Below the pieces are notes generated by a model that saw only the letters and a list, made by a program, of their open reading frames with translations, was not told the origin of the DNA and searched no databases. A program made the position numbers and the translations under genes. DNA of 64,000 nucleotides from Macrostomum lignano. Lineage: Eukaryota. The stretch spans positions 62,001 through 126,000 of the forward strand of contig NIVC01002565.1 in assembly GCA_002269645.1 (NCBI GenBank), written 5' to 3'. Positions 4,188 through 19,538 of this stretch are shown here, piece after piece. The first letter of the stretch is position 1, and each line of letters begins with the position of its first letter.

Positions 4188-5251
4188 TTAGTTGCTCTGT
4201 GCTAGTTAAAGCTTACACCTTAGCAGGCATGCTTGGCAATAGAGAACAAGATTTTAGAGAGCGGGTCGCTGTGAAGCCCTTAAGTCTTTATTAACTGCCT
4301 TTTTATGAGCGTATAGTATTAAGCAGCCACGGAAGTATGTACAGTTAAGAGATGGAGAATTCGAGTAATAAAATGAAACATATTTCTTCTTAGTAGATTT
4401 ACTACCAAGTCCGAAGCGATGTTTTGATGCACTTCGGTCCATTTTTCTGCGTTTGTTTCCAGCGTTTAACTTGTGAAAAGTTGTTTGCTTGAATATTAAT
4501 TCGATCGAGGGAGAATATATTAGGATATCAAACTTGAGTATTTGAGAGGATGGGAGGATTTATCAAAGTCCTGTCTCTCAACCTGTATCCAGATCCAGGT
4601 TTTTCCTGCTGTGGAGTCTCCTTTGTAGAAGCCTTTGCTTTAACCGCCGGCTCAGCCGCTAGTTCTTCCAGCCTTGCCTGATTCTGTAGTTCCGCCCGCT
4701 GCTCGGTTTTGCGGGTATCCCATAGCAATTTGGGTTGCACTGTCTCCTACATTCTCTGTCCAGTGTTTCGCTGTTGATCCACATGTCTTTTCCAGAGTAA
4801 TCCACCAACTCGAACTGCGTAGGCCAGTGGAGCTGTCCGCTTGATGATCGTTCCGAGAGCCCATCTTTAAACACATATACGCTCGTACGTACGTTTTAAA
4901 TGGATACATATGGCTCTTAGGGCGCGACTTTTGGCTTGAACGCGAACGCATGCCGCGCCTACCGACCGAGTACGGCCGAGCGCCCGCCTGTCCTCGCAGG
5001 TTCAGTCCCTGCAGTTTAGCAGCAGCAAATCCTACACACGTGGCGGTGAGCACTACGACTCGGCGCAGATGGTGTGGCCTGCTATCTGATGTCGTCGACG
5101 TCTCAAAAAGTCGCTTGGACAGACTAGGCCGGGGTGGCGATACAGTGCCGATTTGGTGACTCGCTTGTGTGTGTGTTTTAACCCTTAGCTCTTAATCTGG
5201 GAATTGTGCCGACAGGGCAACTCCAGAAACCTCGCGACATCGCACGGTCAT

Positions 5252-7190
5252 GACTTACTTGACTTAGCTGCAGGGGTTCCACATCCGGATGCAGCGAGGA
5301 GGCGTTGCCGCCCATGTCGCTAACCCCTGACGACCACGGGCAGCCAGTTCTGCGGTGTCGCGCAGGGAGATCCGATGGTGCCGGTGTCCGCAGCGCGGTC
5401 TCCCTCTGGAGAGTCCAGGAGGTGGATGGTCGTTCGCCCGGTAGCTCTTAGGTAGCGGACGAGCTGTCAGAGATTCTCATGCCTAAAAAGTCGGAGAGGT
5501 CCGGGTTTGGGCCGAGGTAAGTGAGCCTGTTCTAATTAAAGGCGGGGCATTCACAGATGAAATGCTCCGCAGTCTCGACACCGGTCGGAGAGGCAGAATG
5601 GGCATTCCTCACTACGGTTTTTTACCGGGAGGTAACGATGCCTGACAAAACAGCCATGACCCAAGAGGGCCATGGTCACCGCCCTGATGTCCCTGCGGTT
5701 GAGTCCAAGCAGGGCCCTGCGCAGGGCGAAGGAAGGACAGGGGACAGCCTCGCGGGATTGTCGGCAGTCGGGGGCGTTAGCCCACCTTTCCCTCTGCTTT
5801 GAAGCCACCCACTGGTTGATCCGAGTGGTGACAACGGCGGTAGTGGTGGGGGCACGGGCAGGGGACCAGTAGAAGAACCGGTCGAGCCAGTCTTGGCCAG
5901 GCGATCGGCCAACTCGTTGCTGGGGTAGCCCGAGTGCCCGGGGATCCACCTTAGGGACACCTTGTTGGAGGCGCCTAAGCGGTTAAGCTGCGCGATGCAG
6001 TCGAGGACTGTACGCGAGCAGGTGGAGGTGCGCTTAAGGGCGTGGATCGCCGCTTGACTGTGCGAGTGGAGGGTAATCGCCTTCCCCAGACGCGCTGATG
6101 TACGGCTCCATGGCGCAGAAGCTGATGGCGAGAACTTCGTTTTGGAAAACAGTGGAGCAGGTGCCTGCTAGGAAGTCACCACGGTTCTCCCTCCAGACAC
6201 GATGCAGTATCCGTAGCCAGAGGTGGAGTTGATTTGGAACCCGTCAGTGAAGCAGTGGATTTCACGGGGTTTCCAGTTGTCCCTTGCCTCATGACGTGGT
6301 GGAATGCTGGTTTTGAATTCAAGCGGATGGCAGAGCGTAGACGGGATTCCGTCCGAGAGGGTCAGCAGGCCTTCCGCTGCTTCCAGGTCTCGCAGGCTGC
6401 GGTCGCAGAAGTTTTACTTTCTGAAAGCGAACTGCTTCTGGATGAGGACACCCGCGTCAAGCAGACGCGGGAGTTCATTGCCTCCCCTCCAACAAATAGG
6501 TCAAGGGGAAGGTCCAGGAAGAAGTTCATGCCAAGCAAAGGGTGAGAGGGAGTCGCGCTCATGATGGCTCGACGAGTGCGGCCTTGCACCTTGTTAGGAG
6601 CTTCAAGAACCCCTTTCACCTCTAGGCACTGTTCCAGATGAAGCCGGCAAAGTCTCACGATGGCAGTGTAAATCCACGGCGGGGGTGAGGCCCCAGGTAG
6701 CGCCGAAAGCTCTGCGGATCTGCGTGAGAGTCGCGAGAGCTTTGCAGGCTTTGGTTTGGACGTGTGGCGTGACGCCCAGACATCTGGTTTGTTTCTCCAT
6801 GGCAACGGGTTTGCGGTTCAATTCTCCAGTTTCGGCTGCTGATAAAAATTATAGCCACGGTTTTAGACTCAGAGAACCTGAGACCGCGGCTGTGTGCCCA
6901 GCGCTCGGCACGGTGGATGAAGGCTTGGAGGAGGTCTCTGAGGACCGCGGGTGATGGTCCAGCCCAGGGACTACTCCCTGGAGTAGTCCCTGGTCCAGCC
7001 ACAGTAGCCGCCGACATTTTAAACCGGGTCCGGATACGGGCTGCAGAGCAGCTCGTCCATGACAAGTTCCAGGGGATCTTGTGAACGTCGTCATCAATTA
7101 CCAATAATCTATTGGAGATGGAGACAGACGAACGGCTGATATCGCAGAAGTTCTATCGCCTGTCCGTCAGCGTCTCGGCGCAAAATAAAT
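5252..7190 (-). mobile_element. 5'-truncated, degenerate LOA-like non-LTR retrotransposon (RT C-terminus, RNase H, CCHC, 3' UTR)
   Basis: Fragmented ORFs homologous to ORF2 of 28631-34514: [45 protein letters not shown]...CPFC. Same 3' tail GCAGCTAAGTCAAG. Confidence 0.88.
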
Positions 7191-9781: not shown

Positions 9782-10643
9782 TGATGTGTTCCTTATTACC
9801 CGACTTTCGATAATCAAGGAACAATCACTTCTAGCTCAACAGCTAGGCAACCCAGTAAGTCAAACGAAGGTATTCAATTACCTTTAATCCGGATTTGAAT
9901 TTCTTGAGTAGTTCTCGCTAGGAACTTGTCAGTAGATCTCGTAGATCAGGCGCCTTGATTCTTCAGTTGCTCTGGTCCTGGTTCCTCTTGTACTTCCGAT
10001 AAGTTCTTCCGGCCGGTATCTTCCGTCAGGACCAATCAGAGGCCTCGTAGCAACAATGGGTACCCTGCGCCAAACTGCGGTCTAAATTAAGCCTCCTTCT
10101 TCTAGCAGTGCCTCTATGCACTCTAGGTATAGCTCCGGAAACCACTGATAGTCCTCTAAGATCTATCAGGGGCAGTCCTTCTGGAGACTGCAACCAATGG
10201 AGTCTAAACAGACTCAAGAGTCTCAACAGACTCAATTAGACTCAAGTCTCAATAGACTTGAGCGAGACGTCTCTAACACAACGGGCGCAAATAAGGAAGG
10301 CTTACCGCAACAACTCGACCGAGTCTCGATTGACTTGGTAGATCAGGAAGTCCTCCTAAGGCTTCCTCTTCGGAGCGCTCCTCTTCCGTGGGGAGAATGG
10401 CTCCGGTACCGCTTCAGATCGCTTGTATTTATAGACAAGTTTTTGATCCAAAATAGTATCATGACAATTCACGTGTTGCGCTAAAAGGGGAAAATGGCTC
10501 ATGGCGTATTATTCTGGTAACATCTTTTTCTGGTAGCGTGATTCATTCAAAGCTTAGGCGCACATGCGTGTACTTACTTACTTATAGTAGTATTATACGA
10601 TTATCTTTTTTTTCTGTTTTTGCGGGAGGCAGAACACTCTACA
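9782..10643 (-). repeat. 3' LTR (862 bp)
   Basis: Direct repeat of 19539-20400 at a constant offset of 9757. No differences seen by eye, and the ORF-track translations inside both LTRs are identical. Confidence 0.97.
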
Positions 10644-10646
10644 AAA

Positions 10647-10658
10647 TCTCCCTTTTTT
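10647..10658 (-). promoter_or_regulatory. Polypurine tract
   Basis: AAAAAAGGGAGA on the minus strand, 3 nt before the 3' LTR. Confidence 0.85.
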
Positions 10659-10773
10659 ACGAAAAAAAACTCGTCCCGAGTTTTAACAATGAAATAATAA
10701 AATTCTGTGGTGATCAGTTAATATAGGAAATAAACAATTGATTTTGTGCGCGTCTAGAGAAGCGAGGGTTTGG

Positions 10774-11207
10774 TCAAAACTCTAAAAACTTTTCAGTACA
10801 TATTGCGGTCAAAACTCGAATATCGCGTAGACATCGAGTGGCATCAGGTTTGATACGACACCACTTTCGAAACGTGCAGTCTCGCGGCATACTATTACAT
10901 AAGGGGCATCCTATAATGCCCCTACTAGCGGTTTGCTTCAAACAGTGCATGCAAATAAAATGTTGGTGGTTACAATATTGAAACGTGCGCCAAGAATAAC
11001 AATAGGCACATTGTCGCAAACTATCTCTACAGAGGGGACAATCTGCCAGGGCTGAATATAGTGTGAATCACTTAAACATTGTCCGCAAACTTTATGTCCA
11101 TTGATGCAAATAGTCGGTGGCTTGACAGCCAAGTCATCAGTTAAACATATCGGGCAGTCATATAGCTGCTGAGGCTGGGGCGCCTGTTTTGACAGTGCGT
11201 TGCCCAT
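10774..11207 (-). CDS. Accessory ORF of the LTR element: N-myristoylated tandem RING (2 x C3HC4) protein, ~144 aa after restoring one base near 11065
   Basis: Joins ORF-track 10938..11219 and 10774..11019. It starts MGNALSK, followed by CPIC-x12-C-x3-H-x2-C-x2-C-[frameshift]-CPLC and then CAYC-x8-C-x3-H-x2-C-x2-C-x11-CPLC. Confidence 0.75.
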
Positions 11208-11327
11208 AATTGTCGTCAATTTGTCGCTGTCTTTGTGTCGCTCGGATTAGTCGCCTTTTACGACAAGCTTGCGAAGCTGTAGTGCTATTCTTTATCCCGG
11301 TCACTACACGGGGTTGTTCTCTAAACT

Positions 11328-11640
11328 CTAGCGTGGTCGTAGGTTGTAGCCATGTGGCTGGCTCACATCTGTCGTTTGAGTCTCCTCGTGCTTCGTCGCG
11401 ATGTGGCGGTTCGTTGAACGCGTGCGATCAGCGTTGTCTAATGTCGGTAGAAACGTCGCGTGTCAGTGTTGATCTTCTTTAGTCGATGAATGTGTACGTA
11501 GAACTGGTGCTGATGTGGATCTTGTACATTAGCCAGGCGTGCCGTTGTTGGTGACGTTAGTTGGACCACTCGATAGGGTCCTTTATACTTCTGTGCATGT
11601 TTATGCGTCTGCTGTGGCGGGTAGTGTAGGTAACGATGTC
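11328..11640 (-). CDS. Frameshifted integrase C-terminal tail (GPY module and YNLRPR end)
   Basis: Alternative frames read GDIV/YLHYPPQQTHKHAQKYKGPYRVVQL...VHIHRLKK and ...QPHGYNLRPR*, typical Gypsy integrase C-terminal motifs. Two single-base indels are required. Confidence 0.75.
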
Positions 11641-14600
11641 GCCGGCCGTCAGGGTTGTCGATCTCGCGTCGTTGCCGGTGGTCAGAGCCACCTGGTTGTC
11701 AATGTTGTGCTTGGCGATCTTCCATGCGAGGTGTAGTTGCGTGACGAATTTCTGAATGGAAGTCGGTACTTCCACGTACTGCGATGGTAGCAATTGCTGT
11801 GCGAGCAGATTCGGCGGTTGGAAGTCTCGTCCAAACATTAGGAAGAATGGCGTATTGTCCGTTGATCGATGAATAGCGCTGTTGTAGGCCATTGTTACAG
11901 ATTGCAGGTAGATGATCCAGTCTTCCGGCTGTTGGTGCGCGAAATGTGTAATCATCTCGTGCAGGTTGCGGTGAAACCGTTCAACCATGTTTGCCTTCGG
12001 ATTGTAGGTCGATGTGTAGATCTGCGTAATGTTGAGAATCCTTACGACTTGCTGAAACAGTTGCGATGTAAACTGCGATCCGTTGTCCGATGTGAGGTTC
12101 TTCGGCGTGCCGTACTTGCAAATGATTTCGTTGAAGAAACTCATTGCCACTGTCTGAGCTGTGATGTCCGGTATCGGTATGGCGATAGCAAACTTCGAGA
12201 AGATATCCAAGGCGGTTAGAATGTAGGTGTAGGCGATGCCCTGGAGACAGCTCGGTGGTAGCGGTCCGGTGATGTCGATGCTTAGACAGTCCATTGTAGT
12301 CGACTTCGGAATGGACTGTAGCTGCGGTTTCTGTCGTCGTCCTGTCTTTGATGCAGCACATGAATGGCAGTTGTTGCAATACTGCTTGATGTCGCCGTAC
12401 ATAGTTGGCCAAAAGTAGTATTGTTCCACTCTCGCGATGGTCTTTGCTGCCGACAGGTGTCCAGCGAGTGGGTTGTCGTGTAGCTCGTTGAGAATTGCTT
12501 GCCGAAACGAATATGGTATGTAGATCTTGGGTTTATTGTCGCTCATCCAGTAGAGCCGTGACTTATTGATTGTTAGGTGTTGTCGTTGCTTGCGTAGGAA
12601 TTTTCGTTCCATGGGACTGAGTTTGATGTTCTTGTCGTCGTCTTTAACCGCTTGGTAGAAGTTGTCGCGCTCGGTTTCATCCACCAACTCCTTGATGTTA
12701 GGGATTGGATGAATGGCGTTGACTTCATAGGCTCTTGACAGGGCGTCCGCGGCTTTGTTGGTAATTCCTGGTTTGTAGACGAGTTTGTAGTTGTAATCCT
12801 GGATCTTGAGTGTCATTCTGATGAGTCGGTTGTTGGTCTGTCCTTTTGTAGTTACGACGTAGGTCAATGGTGCATGATCCGTGCGTACTATCGTCTGTAT
12901 TGGAGAACCATAGATGTAGTAATGAAACTGTCGCAGGGCGAACAAGACTCCTAGTAGCTCTCGTTCCGTAGCTGACCACTTTGTTTCATTTGGTTTGAGT
13001 GCTCGACTGACGTAGGCAATAGGTCGTTCCTTCTTGTCCTCGGTTTCCTGTAGTAGGACTGCTCCGAGTCCCGTTCCTGAGGCGTCTGTCTCGATGATGA
13101 AGGGCTTGTCGAAGTCCGGATGCTGTAGCAGTGCGTCTGATGTCAGCTGTCGTTTGATTTCGTCGAAACTTTCCTGTTGTCTCTGTGTCCAGTTGTCTTG
13201 CTTCCATTTGTCGAACTTGAGCAGGTCGTACAGTGGCTTTGCTGTCTTTGCGAAGTTAGGTAAGAACTTCCTGAAGTATTGCGCAAGTCCAAGGAATGAT
13301 TGGACCTTCGTTATACTGGTTGGCGTAGGAAACTTCTTCACCTTTTCCACGTTGTCTGGGTCCGGTGAGATTCCTTTGGCTGTCACCTGATGTCCCAGGT
13401 AACGCACGTTGTCTCGGAAGAATTTGCATTTAGTTGGTTGTAGCTTCAGACCTTGGCGTTGAATGAGCGCTAGGGCCTTCTCCGTAGCTTCGTAGAGTCG
13501 CTCGAAATCCTCTCCGTAGGCTAAAATGTCGTCGACATAGTGCAGCAGGTTCGTGCATCCTGCTAGCATGTATGCTGTTAGTCGACTCATCGTTGCTGGG
13601 CTGTTGCTAAGTCCCATCGGCGATCGATTGTACTCGTATACTTGTCCATTGTAGGTTTTGAAAGCCGTGTACTGTCGTGACTCTTTCTCGATTTCAATTT
13701 GCCAAAATCCATGACGTAGGTCGAACACCGTGAACAATTTTGCCGTGTTGAGCTTTGCTAGTAGTTCGGAGATCTTCGGTAGGCTTTGCTGATCCGTCGG
13801 TATGTACTTGTTCAACAGTCTGAAGTCGCATACGAGTCGTCTTTCGTTTGTCTCCTTCTTCTGTACCAGTAGGCACGGTGAGGAGTAAGCCGAAATAGCT
13901 TTGCTGATGATGCCGTGCTTTAGCATTTTATCGATGATTTCGTCAAAGTGTTGTTGCAGATGCTTGGCGATCGGGTACGGCTTGCACTGAATTGGTTCCG
14001 TGTGCGGCAGAAGTTTGATTTCCTGTTTGATGTCCTTGGCTCGTCCGATGTCGTAATCATGATGGCAGAAGGCTTCGTTGTACTTCCACAACAGCTGTCG
14101 AACTTTCCTCTTTTGCTGTTCCGTAATCGGGCTGTCATCCAAATTGATCTTCTTTTGAAATTCTTCCTCTGTTAGTCGTGGAGTCGCTTGTTCAATCAGC
14201 ATAACCGATGCTTGGGTGTTGAGATGACCGATGCACATTCCTTGTCGTAGATGAACCGTTTCTGTGTTCGGGTTGAAGATTTGTACTGGCAGTTGCTTAT
14301 CCTTTGCAACCAGCACTAGTGCCGTAGGCATCATGATTTGATGTTTTGCCGTGACTCTCCTGTGTGGATCAAATATCATTGCTTCATCTGCCGCGCTGGT
14401 CGTTTTCGCTCTGACCCAGCATGCGCTTTCAGGCTGGATAATGACATCTTGCTGCAGAGTTACTTTCGGTAGTACTCGAATCTGGTTGATCAGCGGTTGC
14501 TCCACCGTGTCGATCCTAAACGTTTGCTTGTTGAAGTCGAAGGTCAATGGTAGTTGAAGCTGCTTGAACGTGTCGATTCCAACGATGACGTCTTGGTTTG

Positions 14601-17600
14601 GTAGTCTGTCGATGATGTACGTCGGGACCGTCAGCTGTTTATTAGCAATTTTCAAGTCGATATCTGCTTTTCCTAGGATGTTGAGTGAATGTCCTCCTGC
14701 TCCTGCAACTGCGATTGCTGCTGGTCGTACCGCGAGTCGTAGCTTGTTGCATAATTGTTGCGAGATGACTGTGATCGAGCTGCCTGAATCCAGTAGTGCT
14801 CGACATGGCAAGTTGTTGACAATGACCTGAGCCATTGCTTTGCCAATCTCGGCGTGTAGCGTACAGACGTAGTTTTCCGGCCATTTTGGCTCGTGCTGTT
14901 CTGCTTGATAGTTGGGTGGTTGTATCCTTGGTGCCGTTGGTGTTGTCGGAATCGATGGATATAGCCGCGTTGCTAGTGTCGGTTGCCCTTGAACCTCACA
15001 ATGTGCAGTTTCTGTTAGTTCTAAACTGTTGTCGCTTTCCGTTGTCGTTCTTTGCATTATGGCATTCACTGTCTTCTTAGCTCTTGGACAAGTTTGACTG
15101 AAGCACCGTACGATCGATGAAATGATGAAGATTGCCGTGACAATCCACACAATGCAAGCACCGTAGAAGATGAATCCTTGATAGAGACTGCCTCTTCCAT
15201 TGAGCAGCTCCCAGAAGCTATTTGTCCAAAATGATTTGATGGCGCTGTCCATTGAAACAAGGACGGGAAATCTTCCTGTCCCGGTTCCTTTGTCCTTTCT
15301 TGTGAACAGCTGGTGAATCATCTTGCGTTGGGTGATGAACGCTTGCAAGAAGTCGTTGATCGTCCATCCTGGTGTTATCTCGTCAAGTTGGATATCGGCG
15401 AATGGCGTATACTTCGTTCTGTTGAATCGGATTTTCAAATCCTCCATGTCGTAGTTTTCGTCGACGATTACTTCCGGTTCTGTGACGTTTGCTGTCGTTC
15501 CAGTTGTTTTGATGACGTGTAGTGCATTGTCCAGTTGATAGTAGTTTACTGCCGTGGTGCAAGGTCTCGGTATTGCGGTGCCAACGATGATGTTGTGTAC
15601 CGTGTCCAAGAATCCCTGAATTCGTTTTCCTTCGTAGAACGCTTCAATCCTTGGCTTATCGTAGCAGGTTGTTGACGTGTTTGACGGCAAGATGTTAAAG
15701 TGCTGTATCGGCGTGCACTTGTATATCAACAGATGCTCGTATATTGGAACTGCCAAAACGTTCGTCATTCCGGTGATTTTACGAAAAGTCATCGTAGGGT
15801 TGACATAGTAGTTTTGTCTGGCATAATTTAAGTTGATTGCGTGCATTTTGCAAGTTAGCTGGACCAGTGTTCGATGCAAGTGGTTTAACTGGTTGTGTAG
15901 ATTGTGATCCAAAGCCGTTATCTTTGCTGACAACAGCCGGTTTGACACCAGTTTGGGACGTTCGATGTCACGTCGTCTTCTATTCTGTTTTTCTTGTTGC
16001 TGATACGTTCCATTGATGATTGCCAAGAAGGTTTGTTTGTCTTCATCCTTTACGTAGACTGGTATCTCTTGTTCCGAGATGAATAGTGTCTTGTCTGTAT
16101 CCTTGCATTTCAGTTTTTGCTCGACTGGTTTCTTTTGAAACGTCAGTGCCAAGTCTCCTGACTTTGCCAAAAACGTATTTGACAGTAGTCCTCCTTCAAC
16201 TGTGTGATACTTTTGAAGCTTGCAGTCAATTTCCGGCTCAACTTCCCACGCGAAGAAGTATTGTCGTGATTTGTACGGTTCCTCATAGTGTGATTGTGCT
16301 CTGTGCTCAATCTGCCATCGATAGTCTTGATGATATGTTGGACTCAGTGGTAGACTGTGTAGTTCTTCCTTCCGTAGAATCGGCGTTGGACACCATCCTT
16401 CACTGTATCGACATTCGCTTAGTTGCAGCTGTAACGATTCCATTTTCTCGTACGGATTGTAGTAGAATGGAATATTTCTGATCAAGTAGCTGTTGCGTGC
16501 CATATATTCTTTCCATTTTCCGAAGAAGTGAATATATCGACCGTTGGCTGAATTCTTTGTTCTGAACAGCTGTGCGTTGCCGACCTTCTCATCTGGTTCC
16601 AGTTCACCATCCTTTGAAAATAGTGTTTGATTCCATTGTAGGCATTCCGCGTGCGACACATGTAGCTCATGTTGTTTAAATCGGATCCGGTTCCATTGTC
16701 CGCGCCAAACTTTTTCCACCAGGTGCTTGTCTCTGAAGCATACTATCCCGTGTTGTCGATGCTTCTTGATGTTAGCCTTGTAGAGATCGAGTGTAATCTT
16801 CTTTGGTTTTGTCTGGTTTGTCTTGAAGTAACTGCATTTGATGTCGGTTGGTATCTTGTAGATCATCGGTTGGATATGCGCATCCGTTGGACAAATCATT
16901 GGCTTTTCCGTTGCCGTTGCTTTGGCGACTACTGCTATCAGTAGTATCACGATGATCCAGAATAGCCAGTTTTTCCACTTCTTGGATTTTGCCGTTGTCC
17001 TTGCTGGCATTGGCTGCGATCGCCATTCGTTATCTTCCATGTCCGCATCATATTCTTTCGGTTGTTCCATTGGCTGATCCAGGCGGAAGGCTTCTGATTC
17101 GCTTTGCTTTTTGGTTATTTCATTATCTTCGTCTGCGGCTTCTTCCGATGTTTCCGTTGTTTCACTCCATTGCGTTTGGTATCTTTTCTCTGTCTTGTAG
17201 TCGACCGTTTGAATATAGGCTTCACCATTTCGTTTGTATCGGATCTCGTAGCATTCGTCGCTGTCGGAACTCGGCTTTTCTTTCACCTGTTCTTTTTCCA
17301 TTTCTTCATCTTTCCATTGTATTTCGTAGCCTTGATCGCTGTCGGAACTTAGATTCTCCGCTCTCGGTTCTTCCTGCATTCCTCTTTCGGCTTGGTAGTC
17401 GTTCGTGTCATCACGCACCTCGCAGTCGTGGTCGTTGCCGTAACTTCTACATTCTTCTTCTTCTTTCATTTCTTTGTCTTTCATGCTCGTTTTGTCGTCA
17501 TCCACTGTTGTCGATTCATAGTTGTTTTCTTCGCCGGTTTTCATCTTTTCTTCGTTGCCGATGTCGCTCTCCGCCTCCTCCCTTGTCTTGTGATTTACTT

Positions 17601-18822
17601 TCTTCCTGTTTTCTCTGCTGTCTCCGGTGGTCTCTTTTAATTTGATCATTTCGGTTTCATTCGTCTCTTCTGTGTTGTCAGTGTTGTCCTCGTGCGTCGT
17701 CTTCTTTTCGATCAAGCTGATGTCAAGTTCCGGGACTGTGAAGTCCATTTCCAAGTCGTCAATTGTGAACACTTGCTGTTCTTGCTGTTCATTTTCCGGT
17801 GTGTACGTGATGGCATTCGCGTATCGTGGCATTGCTTGCGTCGGCTGTCTTTGTGTGTATCTGACGTTGCGTGGCCTGTAGCCATTACTTCTGAAGCGGC
17901 CTTCGTTTCCGAAGCGGCCATCATTTCCGGAGCGGTCATTATTTCCGAAGCGTCTATCATTTCCGAAGCGTCTCATTCCTTGTTGTTGGCGATTTTGATA
18001 GTGCTGCCATGGTTTCTGCGGCTTCTGATTGTTGAATATCTGTCGCGGCTTGTCGTATCTTGTTGACCAATGAGGACAATTAATCTGATAATGTCCTTCT
18101 TGTCCGCAGTAGTAACATCTGGCTGAGGCTTGTTCATTTCGTCTTTTTTGTTCGGCGATAGCAGCTGTCTGGTGCTGCATTAACTTGTTTAGTTGCTGCG
18201 TCAGTTTCTGCACTTCATTGTTGCCTGTCGTCATTAATGGGGCACTGGCTTCCCATTGCATTCCGCAACGCAAAAGGTCTTCTTCGGTTTCGATATTTTC
18301 ACGCAAAAGTCTATCCCGAAGTGACGGCTGTGCGTTGTTTATTACGTGCAGGATGAGGTTTTGTTCACGATCCATCAATCGTTGTCTTTCTCTGGCGGCC
18401 AATTCTGCCGCTCCCAGTGGTGGTTGGTCCGCAGCTTGCAGCGGTGGCTGATGCAGTGCCTTAATTATCTGGCGGATATCGTCCACAAAGGCGAGGAAGG
18501 ATTCTGTTGCTTGCATCCTTCTGTTATGCAACTTGTGCAGCAGCACTGATCTGTTTGTGCCGCAACGGTTGAAATGCGCGCGCAGTTGAATGATTAGTGC
18601 TGGATAATTTTGCTGTGTTGCCGCATCCAGCTTGCCGTAAATTTCTCGCGCAGTACCTTGGAGAAGAGGTGGCAGCAGCTGTGCCTTCTCTGGATTTTGT
18701 AGGTTGTATTCCCTACATACCAGGTCAAAATGGTCGACAAATGTGTTAAAATCTTTCTCCATCGAGAAAGTACCGACCGTTTCTTTGATGTCTCTGTGTA
18801 CCGTTGGATTGCGCCGCGCCAT
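11557..18822 (-). CDS. Gag-Env-Pol polyprotein, 2421 aa (capsid, CCHC nucleocapsid, acidic linker, gB-like envelope glycoprotein, aspartic protease, RT, RNase H, integrase)
   Basis: CCHC CYYCGQEGHYQINC (~18075-18116). Signal WLFWIIVILLIAVVAKA (~16920-16975), furin RRRR (~15970-15982), TM (~15110-15180). Protease LLDSGS (~14780-14800), RT YVDD (~13530-13540), RNase H IIETDASG (~13078-13101). Integrase HHCC (12355-12483) and DDE (SIDITGP, SDNGSQF, VERFHR). Confidence 0.97.
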   Translation of the reverse strand: MARRNPTVHRDIKETVGTFSMEKDFNTFVDHFDLVCREYNLQNPEKAQLLPPLLQGTAREIYGKLDAATQQNYPALIIQLRAHFNRCGTNRSVLLHKLHNRRMQATESFLAFVDDIRQIIKALHQPPLQAADQPPLGAAELAARERQRLMDREQNLILHVINNAQPSLRDRLLRENIETEEDLLRCGMQWEASAPLMTTGNNEVQKLTQQLNKLMQHQTAAIAEQKRRNEQASARCYYCGQEGHYQINCPHWSTRYDKPRQIFNNQKPQKPWQHYQNRQQQGMRRFGNDRRFGNNDRSGNDGRFGNEGRFRSNGYRPRNVRYTQRQPTQAMPRYANAITYTPENEQQEQQVFTIDDLEMDFTVPELDISLIEKKTTHEDNTDNTEETNETEMIKLKETTGDSRENRKKVNHKTREEAESDIGNEEKMKTGEENNYESTTVDDDKTSMKDKEMKEEEECRSYGNDHDCEVRDDTNDYQAERGMQEEPRAENLSSDSDQGYEIQWKDEEMEKEQVKEKPSSDSDECYEIRYKRNGEAYIQTVDYKTEKRYQTQWSETTETSEEAADEDNEITKKQSESEAFRLDQPMEQPKEYDADMEDNEWRSQPMPARTTAKSKKWKNWLFWIIVILLIAVVAKATATEKPMICPTDAHIQPMIYKIPTDIKCSYFKTNQTKPKKITLDLYKANIKKHRQHGIVCFRDKHLVEKVWRGQWNRIRFKQHELHVSHAECLQWNQTLFSKDGELEPDEKVGNAQLFRTKNSANGRYIHFFGKWKEYMARNSYLIRNIPFYYNPYEKMESLQLQLSECRYSEGWCPTPILRKEELHSLPLSPTYHQDYRWQIEHRAQSHYEEPYKSRQYFFAWEVEPEIDCKLQKYHTVEGGLLSNTFLAKSGDLALTFQKKPVEQKLKCKDTDKTLFISEQEIPVYVKDEDKQTFLAIINGTYQQQEKQNRRRRDIERPKLVSNRLLSAKITALDHNLHNQLNHLHRTLVQLTCKMHAINLNYARQNYYVNPTMTFRKITGMTNVLAVPIYEHLLIYKCTPIQHFNILPSNTSTTCYDKPRIEAFYEGKRIQGFLDTVHNIIVGTAIPRPCTTAVNYYQLDNALHVIKTTGTTANVTEPEVIVDENYDMEDLKIRFNRTKYTPFADIQLDEITPGWTINDFLQAFITQRKMIHQLFTRKDKGTGTGRFPVLVSMDSAIKSFWTNSFWELLNGRGSLYQGFIFYGACIVWIVTAIFIISSIVRCFSQTCPRAKKTVNAIMQRTTTESDNSLELTETAHCEVQGQPTLATRLYPSIPTTPTAPRIQPPNYQAEQHEPKWPENYVCTLHAEIGKAMAQVIVNNLPCRALLDSGSSITVISQQLCNKLRLAVRPAAIAVAGAGGHSLNILGKADIDLKIANKQLTVPTYIIDRLPNQDVIVGIDTFKQLQLPLTFDFNKQTFRIDTVEQPLINQIRVLPKVTLQQDVIIQPESACWVRAKTTSAADEAMIFDPHRRVTAKHQIMMPTALVLVAKDKQLPVQIFNPNTETVHLRQGMCIGHLNTQASVMLIEQATPRLTEEEFQKKINLDDSPITEQQKRKVRQLLWKYNEAFCHHDYDIGRAKDIKQEIKLLPHTEPIQCKPYPIAKHLQQHFDEIIDKMLKHGIISKAISAYSSPCLLVQKKETNERRLVCDFRLLNKYIPTDQQSLPKISELLAKLNTAKLFTVFDLRHGFWQIEIEKESRQYTAFKTYNGQVYEYNRSPMGLSNSPATMSRLTAYMLAGCTNLLHYVDDILAYGEDFERLYEATEKALALIQRQGLKLQPTKCKFFRDNVRYLGHQVTAKGISPDPDNVEKVKKFPTPTSITKVQSFLGLAQYFRKFLPNFAKTAKPLYDLLKFDKWKQDNWTQRQQESFDEIKRQLTSDALLQHPDFDKPFIIETDASGTGLGAVLLQETEDKKERPIAYVSRALKPNETKWSATERELLGVLFALRQFHYYIYGSPIQTIVRTDHAPLTYVVTTKGQTNNRLIRMTLKIQDYNYKLVYKPGITNKAADALSRAYEVNAIHPIPNIKELVDETERDNFYQAVKDDDKNIKLSPMERKFLRKQRQHLTINKSRLYWMSDNKPKIYIPYSFRQAILNELHDNPLAGHLSAAKTIARVEQYYFWPTMYGDIKQYCNNCHSCAASKTGRRQKPQLQSIPKSTTMDCLSIDITGPLPPSCLQGIAYTYILTALDIFSKFAIAIPIPDITAQTVAMSFFNEIICKYGTPKNLTSDNGSQFTSQLFQQVVRILNITQIYTSTYNPKANMVERFHRNLHEMITHFAHQQPEDWIIYLQSVTMAYNSAIHRSTDNTPFFLMFGRDFQPPNLLAQQLLPSQYVEVPTSIQKFVTQLHLAWKIAKHNIDNQVALTTGNDARSTTLTAGDIVTYTTRHSRRINMHRSIKDPIEWSN
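15060..16980 (-). other. Envelope glycoprotein domain (class III, herpesvirus gB-like) embedded in the polyprotein
   Basis: Signal peptide, Cys-rich ectodomain with six N-X-S/T sequons, furin site and C-terminal TM. The motif series C...NP...C.P...CY..P...GFL...PCT...YY parallels HSV gB domains III-IV. Confidence 0.85.
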
Positions 18823-19518
18823 GTTGTTGATAGGGTAGAACGGTAGTTCAAGATCTGGATCGATTTGTAACGGATCGTCCAGTGTGGTGTTTGCCTCGGA
18901 ATAAACCTCGACTGTAACGAATTGCCTTGTGGTGTCGATTTGTTATTCGCTGGCCTCGGATGCGGTGTGGCTTGCTGCCACTGGTTGTCCTCAAATGAAC
19001 TTGTTCTGTTCGCTTGCTGATTTCGCACTTATGCGGCGTCCCGCAAAGTGTATCTTCAAGTTGAAGTGGACTTGTCTTCTTGCTTTGCAAAGTCTTTCTT
19101 CTCTTCTTTGACTCTCTCTCTTTTGTCAATTAACTCTGCTCTCCACGAAGTTTCAATTAATTTCGGTTTTGTTTTAGTTTTTGTGCCGGCAAAATGTTTC
19201 AGTTATTTTTTGTTTGTTTTGCGTCGACGATTCTTTTTATTTTTGGTTTGTTTTCAGTGTACCGACGAAGTTAATTTCGGTTTTGTTTTAAACTCACACT
19301 TGCTCGAGCTCGTCAAAACAAAATTTTAACACGCGTGCTCAAACTGTACTCAAATTTGACAGGTGCTCAAACCTGTACACCAAATTTTACTCGAGTTTCA
19401 AAACGTAACGGACTTAAAAAGTGTTAACTCTAACACGTGCGCGCAAAATTAATGAAGTCGCTCTGTCGTCACTTTACAATAGCTTGGCCAGGCTATTGCT
19501 CAAGGTTTGAGTAGTGCC

Positions 19519-19536
19519 GAGAGGGCGAGATCACCA
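19519..19536 (-). promoter_or_regulatory. Primer binding site
   Basis: TGGTGATCTCGCCCTCTC begins 2 nt after the 5' LTR. TGG is complementary to tRNA CCA. The primer tRNA was not identified. Confidence 0.8.
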
Positions 19537-19538
19537 AT

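Follow-up and report, generated by a model that had tools for sequence, protein, structure and literature searches.

The long terminal repeat (LTR) retroelement described here, from the flatworm Macrostomum lignano, carried between its integrase and its polypurine tract (PPT) a gene for a protein with two RING motifs in tandem, and this gene belonged to a family of duplicated, element-borne genes under purifying selection. In our assessment, the chances are about even that the family encodes RING E3 ligases aimed at host factors. The element was found in a 64,000-nucleotide stretch of DNA (the window), where a first-pass annotation had proposed that two short open reading frames (ORFs) hid a single gene for an N-myristoylated tandem RING protein, acting either as a matrix-like membrane tether or as a membrane-targeted anti-silencing ligase.

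The window element and its copy of the RING gene

The element extended from 9782 to 20400 on the minus strand. It had a primer-binding site (PBS) and a PPT and was flanked by a target-site duplication of 4 bp. Its 5' LTR (TG...CA, 19539 to 20400, with a TATA box near 20190) and its 3' LTR (9782 to 10643) showed no differences over 860 compared bases. The PBS (19525 to 19536) consisted of the same 12 nt as in the catalogued Mlig_errantivirus_2, and the PPT was located at 10647 to 10658. A single open frame of 2461 codons from stop to stop (11557 to 18942, minus strand) encoded Gag with a CCHC knuckle, a signal/anchor helix, a gB/class III-like ectodomain, a transmembrane helix, protease (PR), reverse transcriptase (RT), RNase H (RH), and integrase (IN), in that order. 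The Gag ATG was found at 18822 and the N-terminus read MARRNP, without Gly2, so that Gag had no N-terminal myristoylation signal, as had been noted earlier. The env region (15124 to 16974), placed between gag and pol, was assigned from the GAG-ENV-POL type of the element, from hydrophobicity, which gave the two bounding helices (signal/anchor, 16918 to 16974; transmembrane, 15124 to 15180), and from a match to PF24664 with an E-value of 2e-5, which was below the cut-off; an RRRR site accompanied the two membrane helices. By its LTRs, PBS, PPT, PR-RT-RH-IN order, and gB-like env between gag and pol, the element is a young Ty3/gypsy errantivirus of the GAG-ENV-POL type. This gene order, with an HSV/gB-type env, has been reported for flatworm, nematode, and bryozoan errantiviruses (Chary and Hayashi, PMC13524379). 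The window element resembled Platyhelminthes_Rhabditophora_Mlig_errantivirus_2 of that report in gene order, env type, the 12-nt PBS, LTR length (approximately 860 nt), and total length (approximately 10.6 kb), and it very likely belongs to this catalogued family. In the window element the slot behind integrase was occupied by the RING gene, not by env, whereas the main text and seven supplements of PMC13524379 described no post-pol cassette for Mlig_errantivirus_2 and contained the word RING 0 times.

A long acidic spacer of low complexity (17000 to 17900) separated the zinc knuckle of Gag from the signal helix of Env. Outside the element, the window held degraded non-LTR retrotransposon fragments (RT and RNase H-like pieces, 5178 to 7152, minus strand), judged by eye from ORFs. 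An intronless ORF approximately 450 bp from the 5' LTR (20844 to 21266, plus strand), which we take from familiar motifs to be an LSm7-like host gene, and exons for PDZ, SH3, and guanylate-kinase domains (23080 to 25565, minus strand), presumably of a Dlg-like host gene by the same kind of judgement, were also present.

The RING gene was located, as annotated, between the end of the pol ORF at 11557 and the PPT. It started on the minus strand with an ATG at 11207 that opened the sequence MGNALSK (11187 to 11207); this confirmed the MGxxxSK start proposed earlier, a candidate N-myristoylation signal confined to the window's lineage of gene 1. Two Cys/His motifs followed in different frames, within ORFs at 10938 to 11246 and 10774 to 11067 (minus strand). 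The first motif, RING1 (11029 to 11156), had the pattern C-x2-C-x12-C-x3-H-x2-C-x2-C-x12-C-x2-C followed by a linchpin Arg, and the second, a RING2-like motif defined by paralogue alignment (10897 to 11010), had the pattern C-x2-C-x8-C-x3-H-x2-C-x2-C-x11-C-x2-C without this Arg. Behind RING2, a stump of a C-terminal helical domain ran to a premature stop (10774 to 10896). When 40 matches of 149 candidates were scored, 30 loci including the window's own were obtained. In 27 of the 29 siblings, one uninterrupted frame spanned both motifs, with lengths of 113 (one locus), 124 (15), 141 (one), 144 (six), and 222 (four) aa, and the remaining two were broken elsewhere. The two short ORFs thus represent the two parts of a single gene. 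The base said to be missing near 11065 was misplaced; a one-base indel near 11042, inside RING1 and approximately 25 nt downstream, separated the window from all 29 siblings, and the junction of the joined peptide that had been proposed was present in none of them. Further one-base indels private to the window, near 11633 and 11460, broke the integrase C-terminus. The three private indels in 2.4 kb, despite identical LTRs, may be real mutations or assembly errors; private single-base gaps were also seen in other copies.

The window copy belonged to a subtype (25 of the 30 loci) derived by a 3' deletion of approximately 1.2 kb, which stopped at 113–144 codons or earlier and lacked the greater part of the C-terminal helical domain and the entire second paralogue. 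Four loci retained a 222-codon gene followed by the second paralogue, and another amplified subtype matched codons 1–90 only and stopped there. Within codons 1–106 of the truncated subtype there were 13 synonymous and 24 non-synonymous variants, of which 9 and 6, respectively, were shared; some of the variants predate the truncation. Because the two most amplified subtypes, including that of the window, keep only a truncated gene 1 and no gene 2, the full cassette was not needed for recent copying and is dispensable in cis.

The RING gene family after pol

Protein searches of the genome scored approximately 150 matches each, numbers that are lower bounds and not copy numbers, and the context was read for a subset of them. 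Four lineages, with integrases 72–100% identical, bore two or three tandem genes after pol, each of approximately 200–225 aa, with the architecture RING1-RING2-helical domain and located between integrase and PPT. Intact-looking cassettes contained two or three genes per element; a single expanded array of up to seven RING genes was considered and rejected, since mapping gave nested insertions parted by LTRs. No RING match was found after pol in seven more distant Ty3/gypsy relatives (integrase identity 38–45%), and an eighth such stretch ended at the contig end. Stacks in which approximately ten or more copies and fragments of the family were nested, all in one orientation, were observed at L111–L118 (G000:C2121:1-70000) and similarly on contigs C87, C1130, C272, C1405, and C4009. 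Many stacked copies sat inside each other's LTRs or RING genes, and the stacks could represent self-targeted insertion or a flamenco-like piRNA cluster.

Pairwise dN/dS values (Nei-Gojobori) indicated purifying selection, at 0.12–0.30 for gene 1 in five of five pairs (upper bootstrap bounds ≤0.67) and 0.14–0.22 for the downstream genes in four of five pairs, the other pair being saturated. The values for comparison genes were 0.03–0.06 for integrase and, where not saturated, 0.06 for gag and 0.10 for env. The cassette is thus under constraint, yet evolves faster than pol. The dS between two lineages was 1.5 for gene 1 but 0.5 for integrase, a difference suggestive of cassette exchange between lineages.

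Among 1.84 billion representatives, only four full-length matches, namely a M. lignano model and three Logan proteins, and two partial matches were found; the other matches were generic RINGs. A near-identical RING protein in UniRef was labelled Macrostomum lignano, and the UniRef model P0001, which is a gene prediction, fused an LTR-coded peptide to the RING start. Logan contigs carried full-length homologues at 25–35% identity. The Logan protein P0004 showed only 33% identity with its best match in this genome, suggesting that the family probably reaches another host. Among named host and viral proteins, homologue searches gave no relative that matched over the full length, and word-based searches gave either no matches or only P0003 and P0004, which were already in the query alignment. 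All full-length matches whose context was examined adjoined the pol or LTR of this family, in a survey that could miss intron-split host genes.

In the alignment of 16 natural paralogues (199–222 aa, with 20–73% identity to the first), the invariant positions included 14 of the 16 zinc ligands, down to 20% identity, and a Trp-Pro pair of the C-terminal domain. Seven of the eight ligands of RING1 were invariant and the eighth was present in 14 of 16 paralogues, with spacing within the canonical C3HC4 range; RING2 likewise had seven invariant ligands of eight, and its first loop of 8 residues was one below the canonical minimum. Arg directly followed the last Cys, which is the linchpin position, in RING1 of 16/16 paralogues and in RING2 of 0/16. 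In addition, RING1 had Pro at the preceding CP in 15 paralogues and Ile or Val at +2 in 14, consistent with an E2-binding face. The linchpin Arg stabilizes closed E2~Ub, and it is not decisive, since some linchpin-bearing RINGs are not ligases and some ligases have no linchpin (PMC12326332). Judged from these sequences, the asymmetry of the Arg would favor one catalytic and one structural RING.

The claim of two C3HC4 RINGs was upheld by the ligand pattern, but not by the short first loop of RING2 or by the Pfam RING scores, all of which were below curated cut-offs (best, 23.4 versus 29.3 bits for Sina_RING and 22.2 versus 27.3 for zf-RING_2). A family profile matched the RINGs of TRIM21, RING1B, and SIAH1 over RING1 (E 3e-5 to 1e-4) and weakly those of MDM2 and TRIM56 over RING2 (E approximately 0.015). 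The family resembled RING E3 ligases (TRIM, SIAH/Sina, RING1B, and MDM2) in the C3HC4 ligand pattern, the Sina-like CxxxH spacing, and the linchpin Arg of RING1, and its nearest neighbors by sequence, fold, and language model were all RING proteins, many of them viral (herpesvirus ICP0 family and giant-virus RINGs). Unlike known host and viral RING ligases, its members had two RINGs six residues apart, followed by a helical domain of approximately 115 residues without a confident fold match. An AlphaFold model (pLDDT 83) predicted a compact helical C-domain and disorder at residues 1–14. The fold search gave a divided answer; residues 9–66 of the model aligned with RING structures at Z 3.2–4.1, but Foldseek E-values exceeded 0.001, and the pdb and viral libraries contained no match at E ≤ 0.001. 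The best VIA-align hit, at Z 5.0, was within background, and a single-sequence fold of the helical domain had a pLDDT of 48. A predicted complex of gene 1 and gene 2 products, made without alignments, scored 0.00. The highest 19-residue hydropathy in the 16 RING proteins was 1.58 against the threshold of 1.9 that was used, indicating that they have no transmembrane helix.

Myristoylation motif, late-domain motifs, and splice signals

Of 20 non-redundant starts in the clade, 19 had MGNALSK or MGNAQSR. Position 5 was free, and Gly2, Asn3, Ser6, and the basic residue 7 were kept across copies with a gene-wide dS of 1.5; the N-myristoylation signal is probably real in this clade. Gly2 was restricted to one nested clade (6/26 tree rows, support 100/100; 2/16 in the paralogue alignment). 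Sister orthologues began with MANT, MAKK, or MDCP, and Gly2 was missing from all downstream paralogues and outside homologues examined. In two sister lineages (c and d), Gag also started with MARRNP and the RING genes had no myristoylation motif. PTAP/PSAP or PPxY was found in 0/16 RING proteins, with one loose YPx(n)L match. A motif scan revealed a late-domain-like cluster of LYPSI, PTAP, and PPNY in a span of 20 residues in the cytoplasmic tail of Env (14908 to 14970, minus strand), behind the transmembrane helix and before the protease, not in Gag. All three motifs were present in three of the five polyproteins examined, those of the window lineage and its close sisters; lineage c had PTAP only, and lineage d none in the segment. 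In a GAG-ENV-POL polyprotein, the two helices would tie Gag and Pol to the membrane.

At 30 of 37 non-redundant starts of downstream genes, an AG stood no more than 2 nt from the ATG, often behind a pyrimidine-rich stretch, compared with 0 of 27 gene-1 starts; for these counts of related, not independent, copies, three mis-called internal Met rows were dropped, and seven rows had been called at a second Met, with AG also preceding the first Met. The seven downstream starts without an adjacent AG were all those of third-position genes. Upstream of gene 1, a non-coding motif kept in diverged lineages (11250 to 11283, minus strand) contained an ACAG candidate acceptor and a short inverted repeat, with its AG approximately 60–90 nt from the gene. 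The 5' LTR of the window element had a candidate splice donor, GTAAG, at 20062, with no ATG between the TATA box and this donor, and a weaker one near 19639. GTAAG occurred approximately 120–130 nt past the LTR TATA box in three of four lineages (a, b, and d); lineage c had no clear donor at this first site, and a second donor-like site was found near the LTR end. The LTR donor and the acceptor-like sites at most downstream ATGs suggest spliced subgenomic mRNAs. Trans-splicing affects many transcripts of M. lignano, which also has polycistronic units (PMC5730564), and either the LTR donor or trans-splicing could yield monocistronic mRNAs. No GT..AG joint was found among the 15 joints listed for the longer copy in assembled contigs of four runs, three of them guessed to be RNA and one of unknown kind; strand and level were not readable from these contigs, and the result weighs neither for nor against expression. 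These contigs covered the longer copy throughout, and one listed joint fitted the 3'-deleted subtype. Among the runs listed, none with a family match was recorded as RNA. Spliced retrocopies were not found in the examined loci, where 46 of 46 occurrences of the LTR donor motif ran on into GTAAG; they are not expected, because such RNAs would lack the PBS.

Possible functions of the cassette and comparison with other elements

The reading to which we give even chances is that of a post-pol accessory cassette of two or three paralogues, each with a RING1-RING2-helical domain architecture, probably expressed from spliced subgenomic mRNAs in which the LTR donor or the host spliced leader is joined to an acceptor at each gene. 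RING1 would bind and activate host E2~ubiquitin, RING2, without the linchpin, would be a structural or dimer-mimic partner, and the helical domain would choose what is ubiquitinated, most plausibly factors by which the host restrains the element. The paralogues would have diverged toward different targets, and gene 1 of one lineage would have gained an N-myristoylation signal that would shift it to membranes. The E3-ligase-like character suggested in the first-pass annotation gains from the RING1 Arg in 16/16 paralogues and from the profile matches to TRIM21, RING1B, and SIAH1; a host defence factor would be the most plausible substrate by analogy with viral RING proteins, and the anti-silencing role put forward in the annotation is conceivable. 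The sub-threshold Pfam scores argue against a ligase family of this kind, as does the fact that copies lacking the full cassette have amplified recently. To our knowledge, animal LTR retrotransposons have few known proteins that counter host defence. A ligase cassette that is conserved and duplicated, in a young element with many copies in a laboratory flatworm, would offer a direct bait, in that any binding partner or ubiquitination substrate of its proteins ought to be either a restriction factor of the host or part of particle egress, and the helical domain, without a confident structural match, may be a new substrate-binding module. If the reading is true, accessory-gene complexity like that of lentiviruses arose in Ty3/gypsy elements. 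A bolder version, possible but doubtful, is an errantivirus with complex-retrovirus organization, in which each paralogue of a spliced two-RING ligase family degrades a different restriction factor (for example, piRNA-pathway or chromatin-silencing proteins), a newly acquired myristoyl anchor redirects one paralogue to membranes, and lineages exchange cassettes faster than pol.

The RING proteins might instead be non-catalytic zinc scaffolds that regulate element RNA or transcription, like CERV of Cer1 or retroviral Rev and Tat, or decoys by which E2s or RING partners of the host are sequestered. CERV is a cysteine-rich accessory protein of a Ty3/gypsy element, made from a spliced mRNA and needed for genomic RNA export (PMC10309623), and a splicing element would need an export route for its unspliced RNA; RING2 lacks catalytic hallmarks, and RING-only truncations are the commonest copies. 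We nevertheless consider this unlikely, though deserving some weight, given that the linchpin Arg of RING1 was invariant and its E2-face residues were kept down to 20% identity, and that a myristoylated version would be poorly suited as a nuclear export factor. The same RING1 hallmarks would serve a ligase acting on the assembly or egress of the element itself, for example through recruitment of ESCRT at membranes by a ubiquitinated Env tail or Gag, and the lineage with the myristoylation signal also had the fullest set of late-domain motifs in its Env tail. This seems rather improbable; the seven more distant Ty3/gypsy relatives in the genome have no RING cassette, the truncated subtypes amplified well, and two or three paralogues at 20–35% identity would fit diverse host targets better than one self-substrate.

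The other function offered in the annotation, in which the RING gene separately supplies a matrix-like tether to the membrane or a budding protein in the manner of arenavirus Z, is in our view very improbable. Z has a size of about 90–100 aa, and it shares with the flatworm proteins the combination of a Gly2 motif and a RING in a small protein, in one lineage only. The retention of Gly2, Asn3, Ser6, and the basic residue 7 at a dS of 1.5, together with a Gag without Gly2, would suit such a tether. However, Z has one RING, a universal Gly2, and usually late domains, which one arenavirus Z is without (PMC3640512), whereas the flatworm family has two RINGs and a 115-residue helical domain in 199–222 aa, no proline-rich late domain in 16/16 proteins, and Gly2 in one derived clade; Lassa Z ranked 48th, with an E-value of 0.8, in the fold search. 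A Z-like matrix function of the family was rejected because Gly2 is limited to that clade, sister lineages have the same Gag start without the motif, and the late motifs lie in the Env tail of a polyprotein that has two membrane helices of its own. We attach almost no weight to a recently captured, decaying fragment of a host RING gene or to a chance join of two ORFs. The broken window copy and its truncated subtype would fit decay, but this explanation is largely refuted by purifying selection in all lineages and the deep paralogue tree; full-length homologues also exist outside this genome, and the full-length matches examined in context adjoin the family's own pol or LTR. The earlier concern that the segment might be unique to this copy was dispelled by the continuous frames of 27 siblings and by the low dN/dS. 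The evidence supports a maintained accessory gene.

Extra genes beside gag, pol, and env, to which the RING cassette may be compared, include CERV, the sORF2 of MDG1-group elements, which is often myristoylated, sometimes located after pol, and fusogen-like with a transmembrane helix (10.1101/2025.03.14.642691), and the extra ORFs of rotifer Ty3/gypsy elements (PMC5408684); an accessory ORF for an m6A demethylase is reported from an orchid Ty3/gypsy element (PMC9289625). The flatworm RING proteins differ from sORF2 in having no transmembrane helix and from CERV, which has no RING, and the main text of PMC5408684 gave 0 matches to RING or ubiquitin. The novelty assumed for Ty3/gypsy elements held in part. 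The element type is already catalogued and myristoylated accessory proteins such as sORF2 are already known, but a RING cassette in an LTR element was not found in the literature searched, nor in PMC13524379 (main text and seven supplements) or the main texts of PMC5408684, PMC11963269, and PMC12801592, a scope that excludes Repbase and subscription journals.

In this genome, the position after pol seems to serve more generally as a slot for accessory genes. Another LTR family had a 293-aa ORF after pol (L138:1800-2681, on G000:C108), a putative member of the element, with a DnaJ domain at its start (PF00226, E 1e-12, above the cut-off, HPD intact), and integrases similar to that of this family were found on many contigs. 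The distant Ty3/gypsy relatives L131, L133, L137, and L136:1418-2506 had other post-pol ORFs (254–260 aa plus 105–113 aa; 362 aa), together with short antisense ORFs of approximately 85 aa, in which a hydrophobic helix followed by Cys and Arg residues was reminiscent of small fusogen-like proteins.
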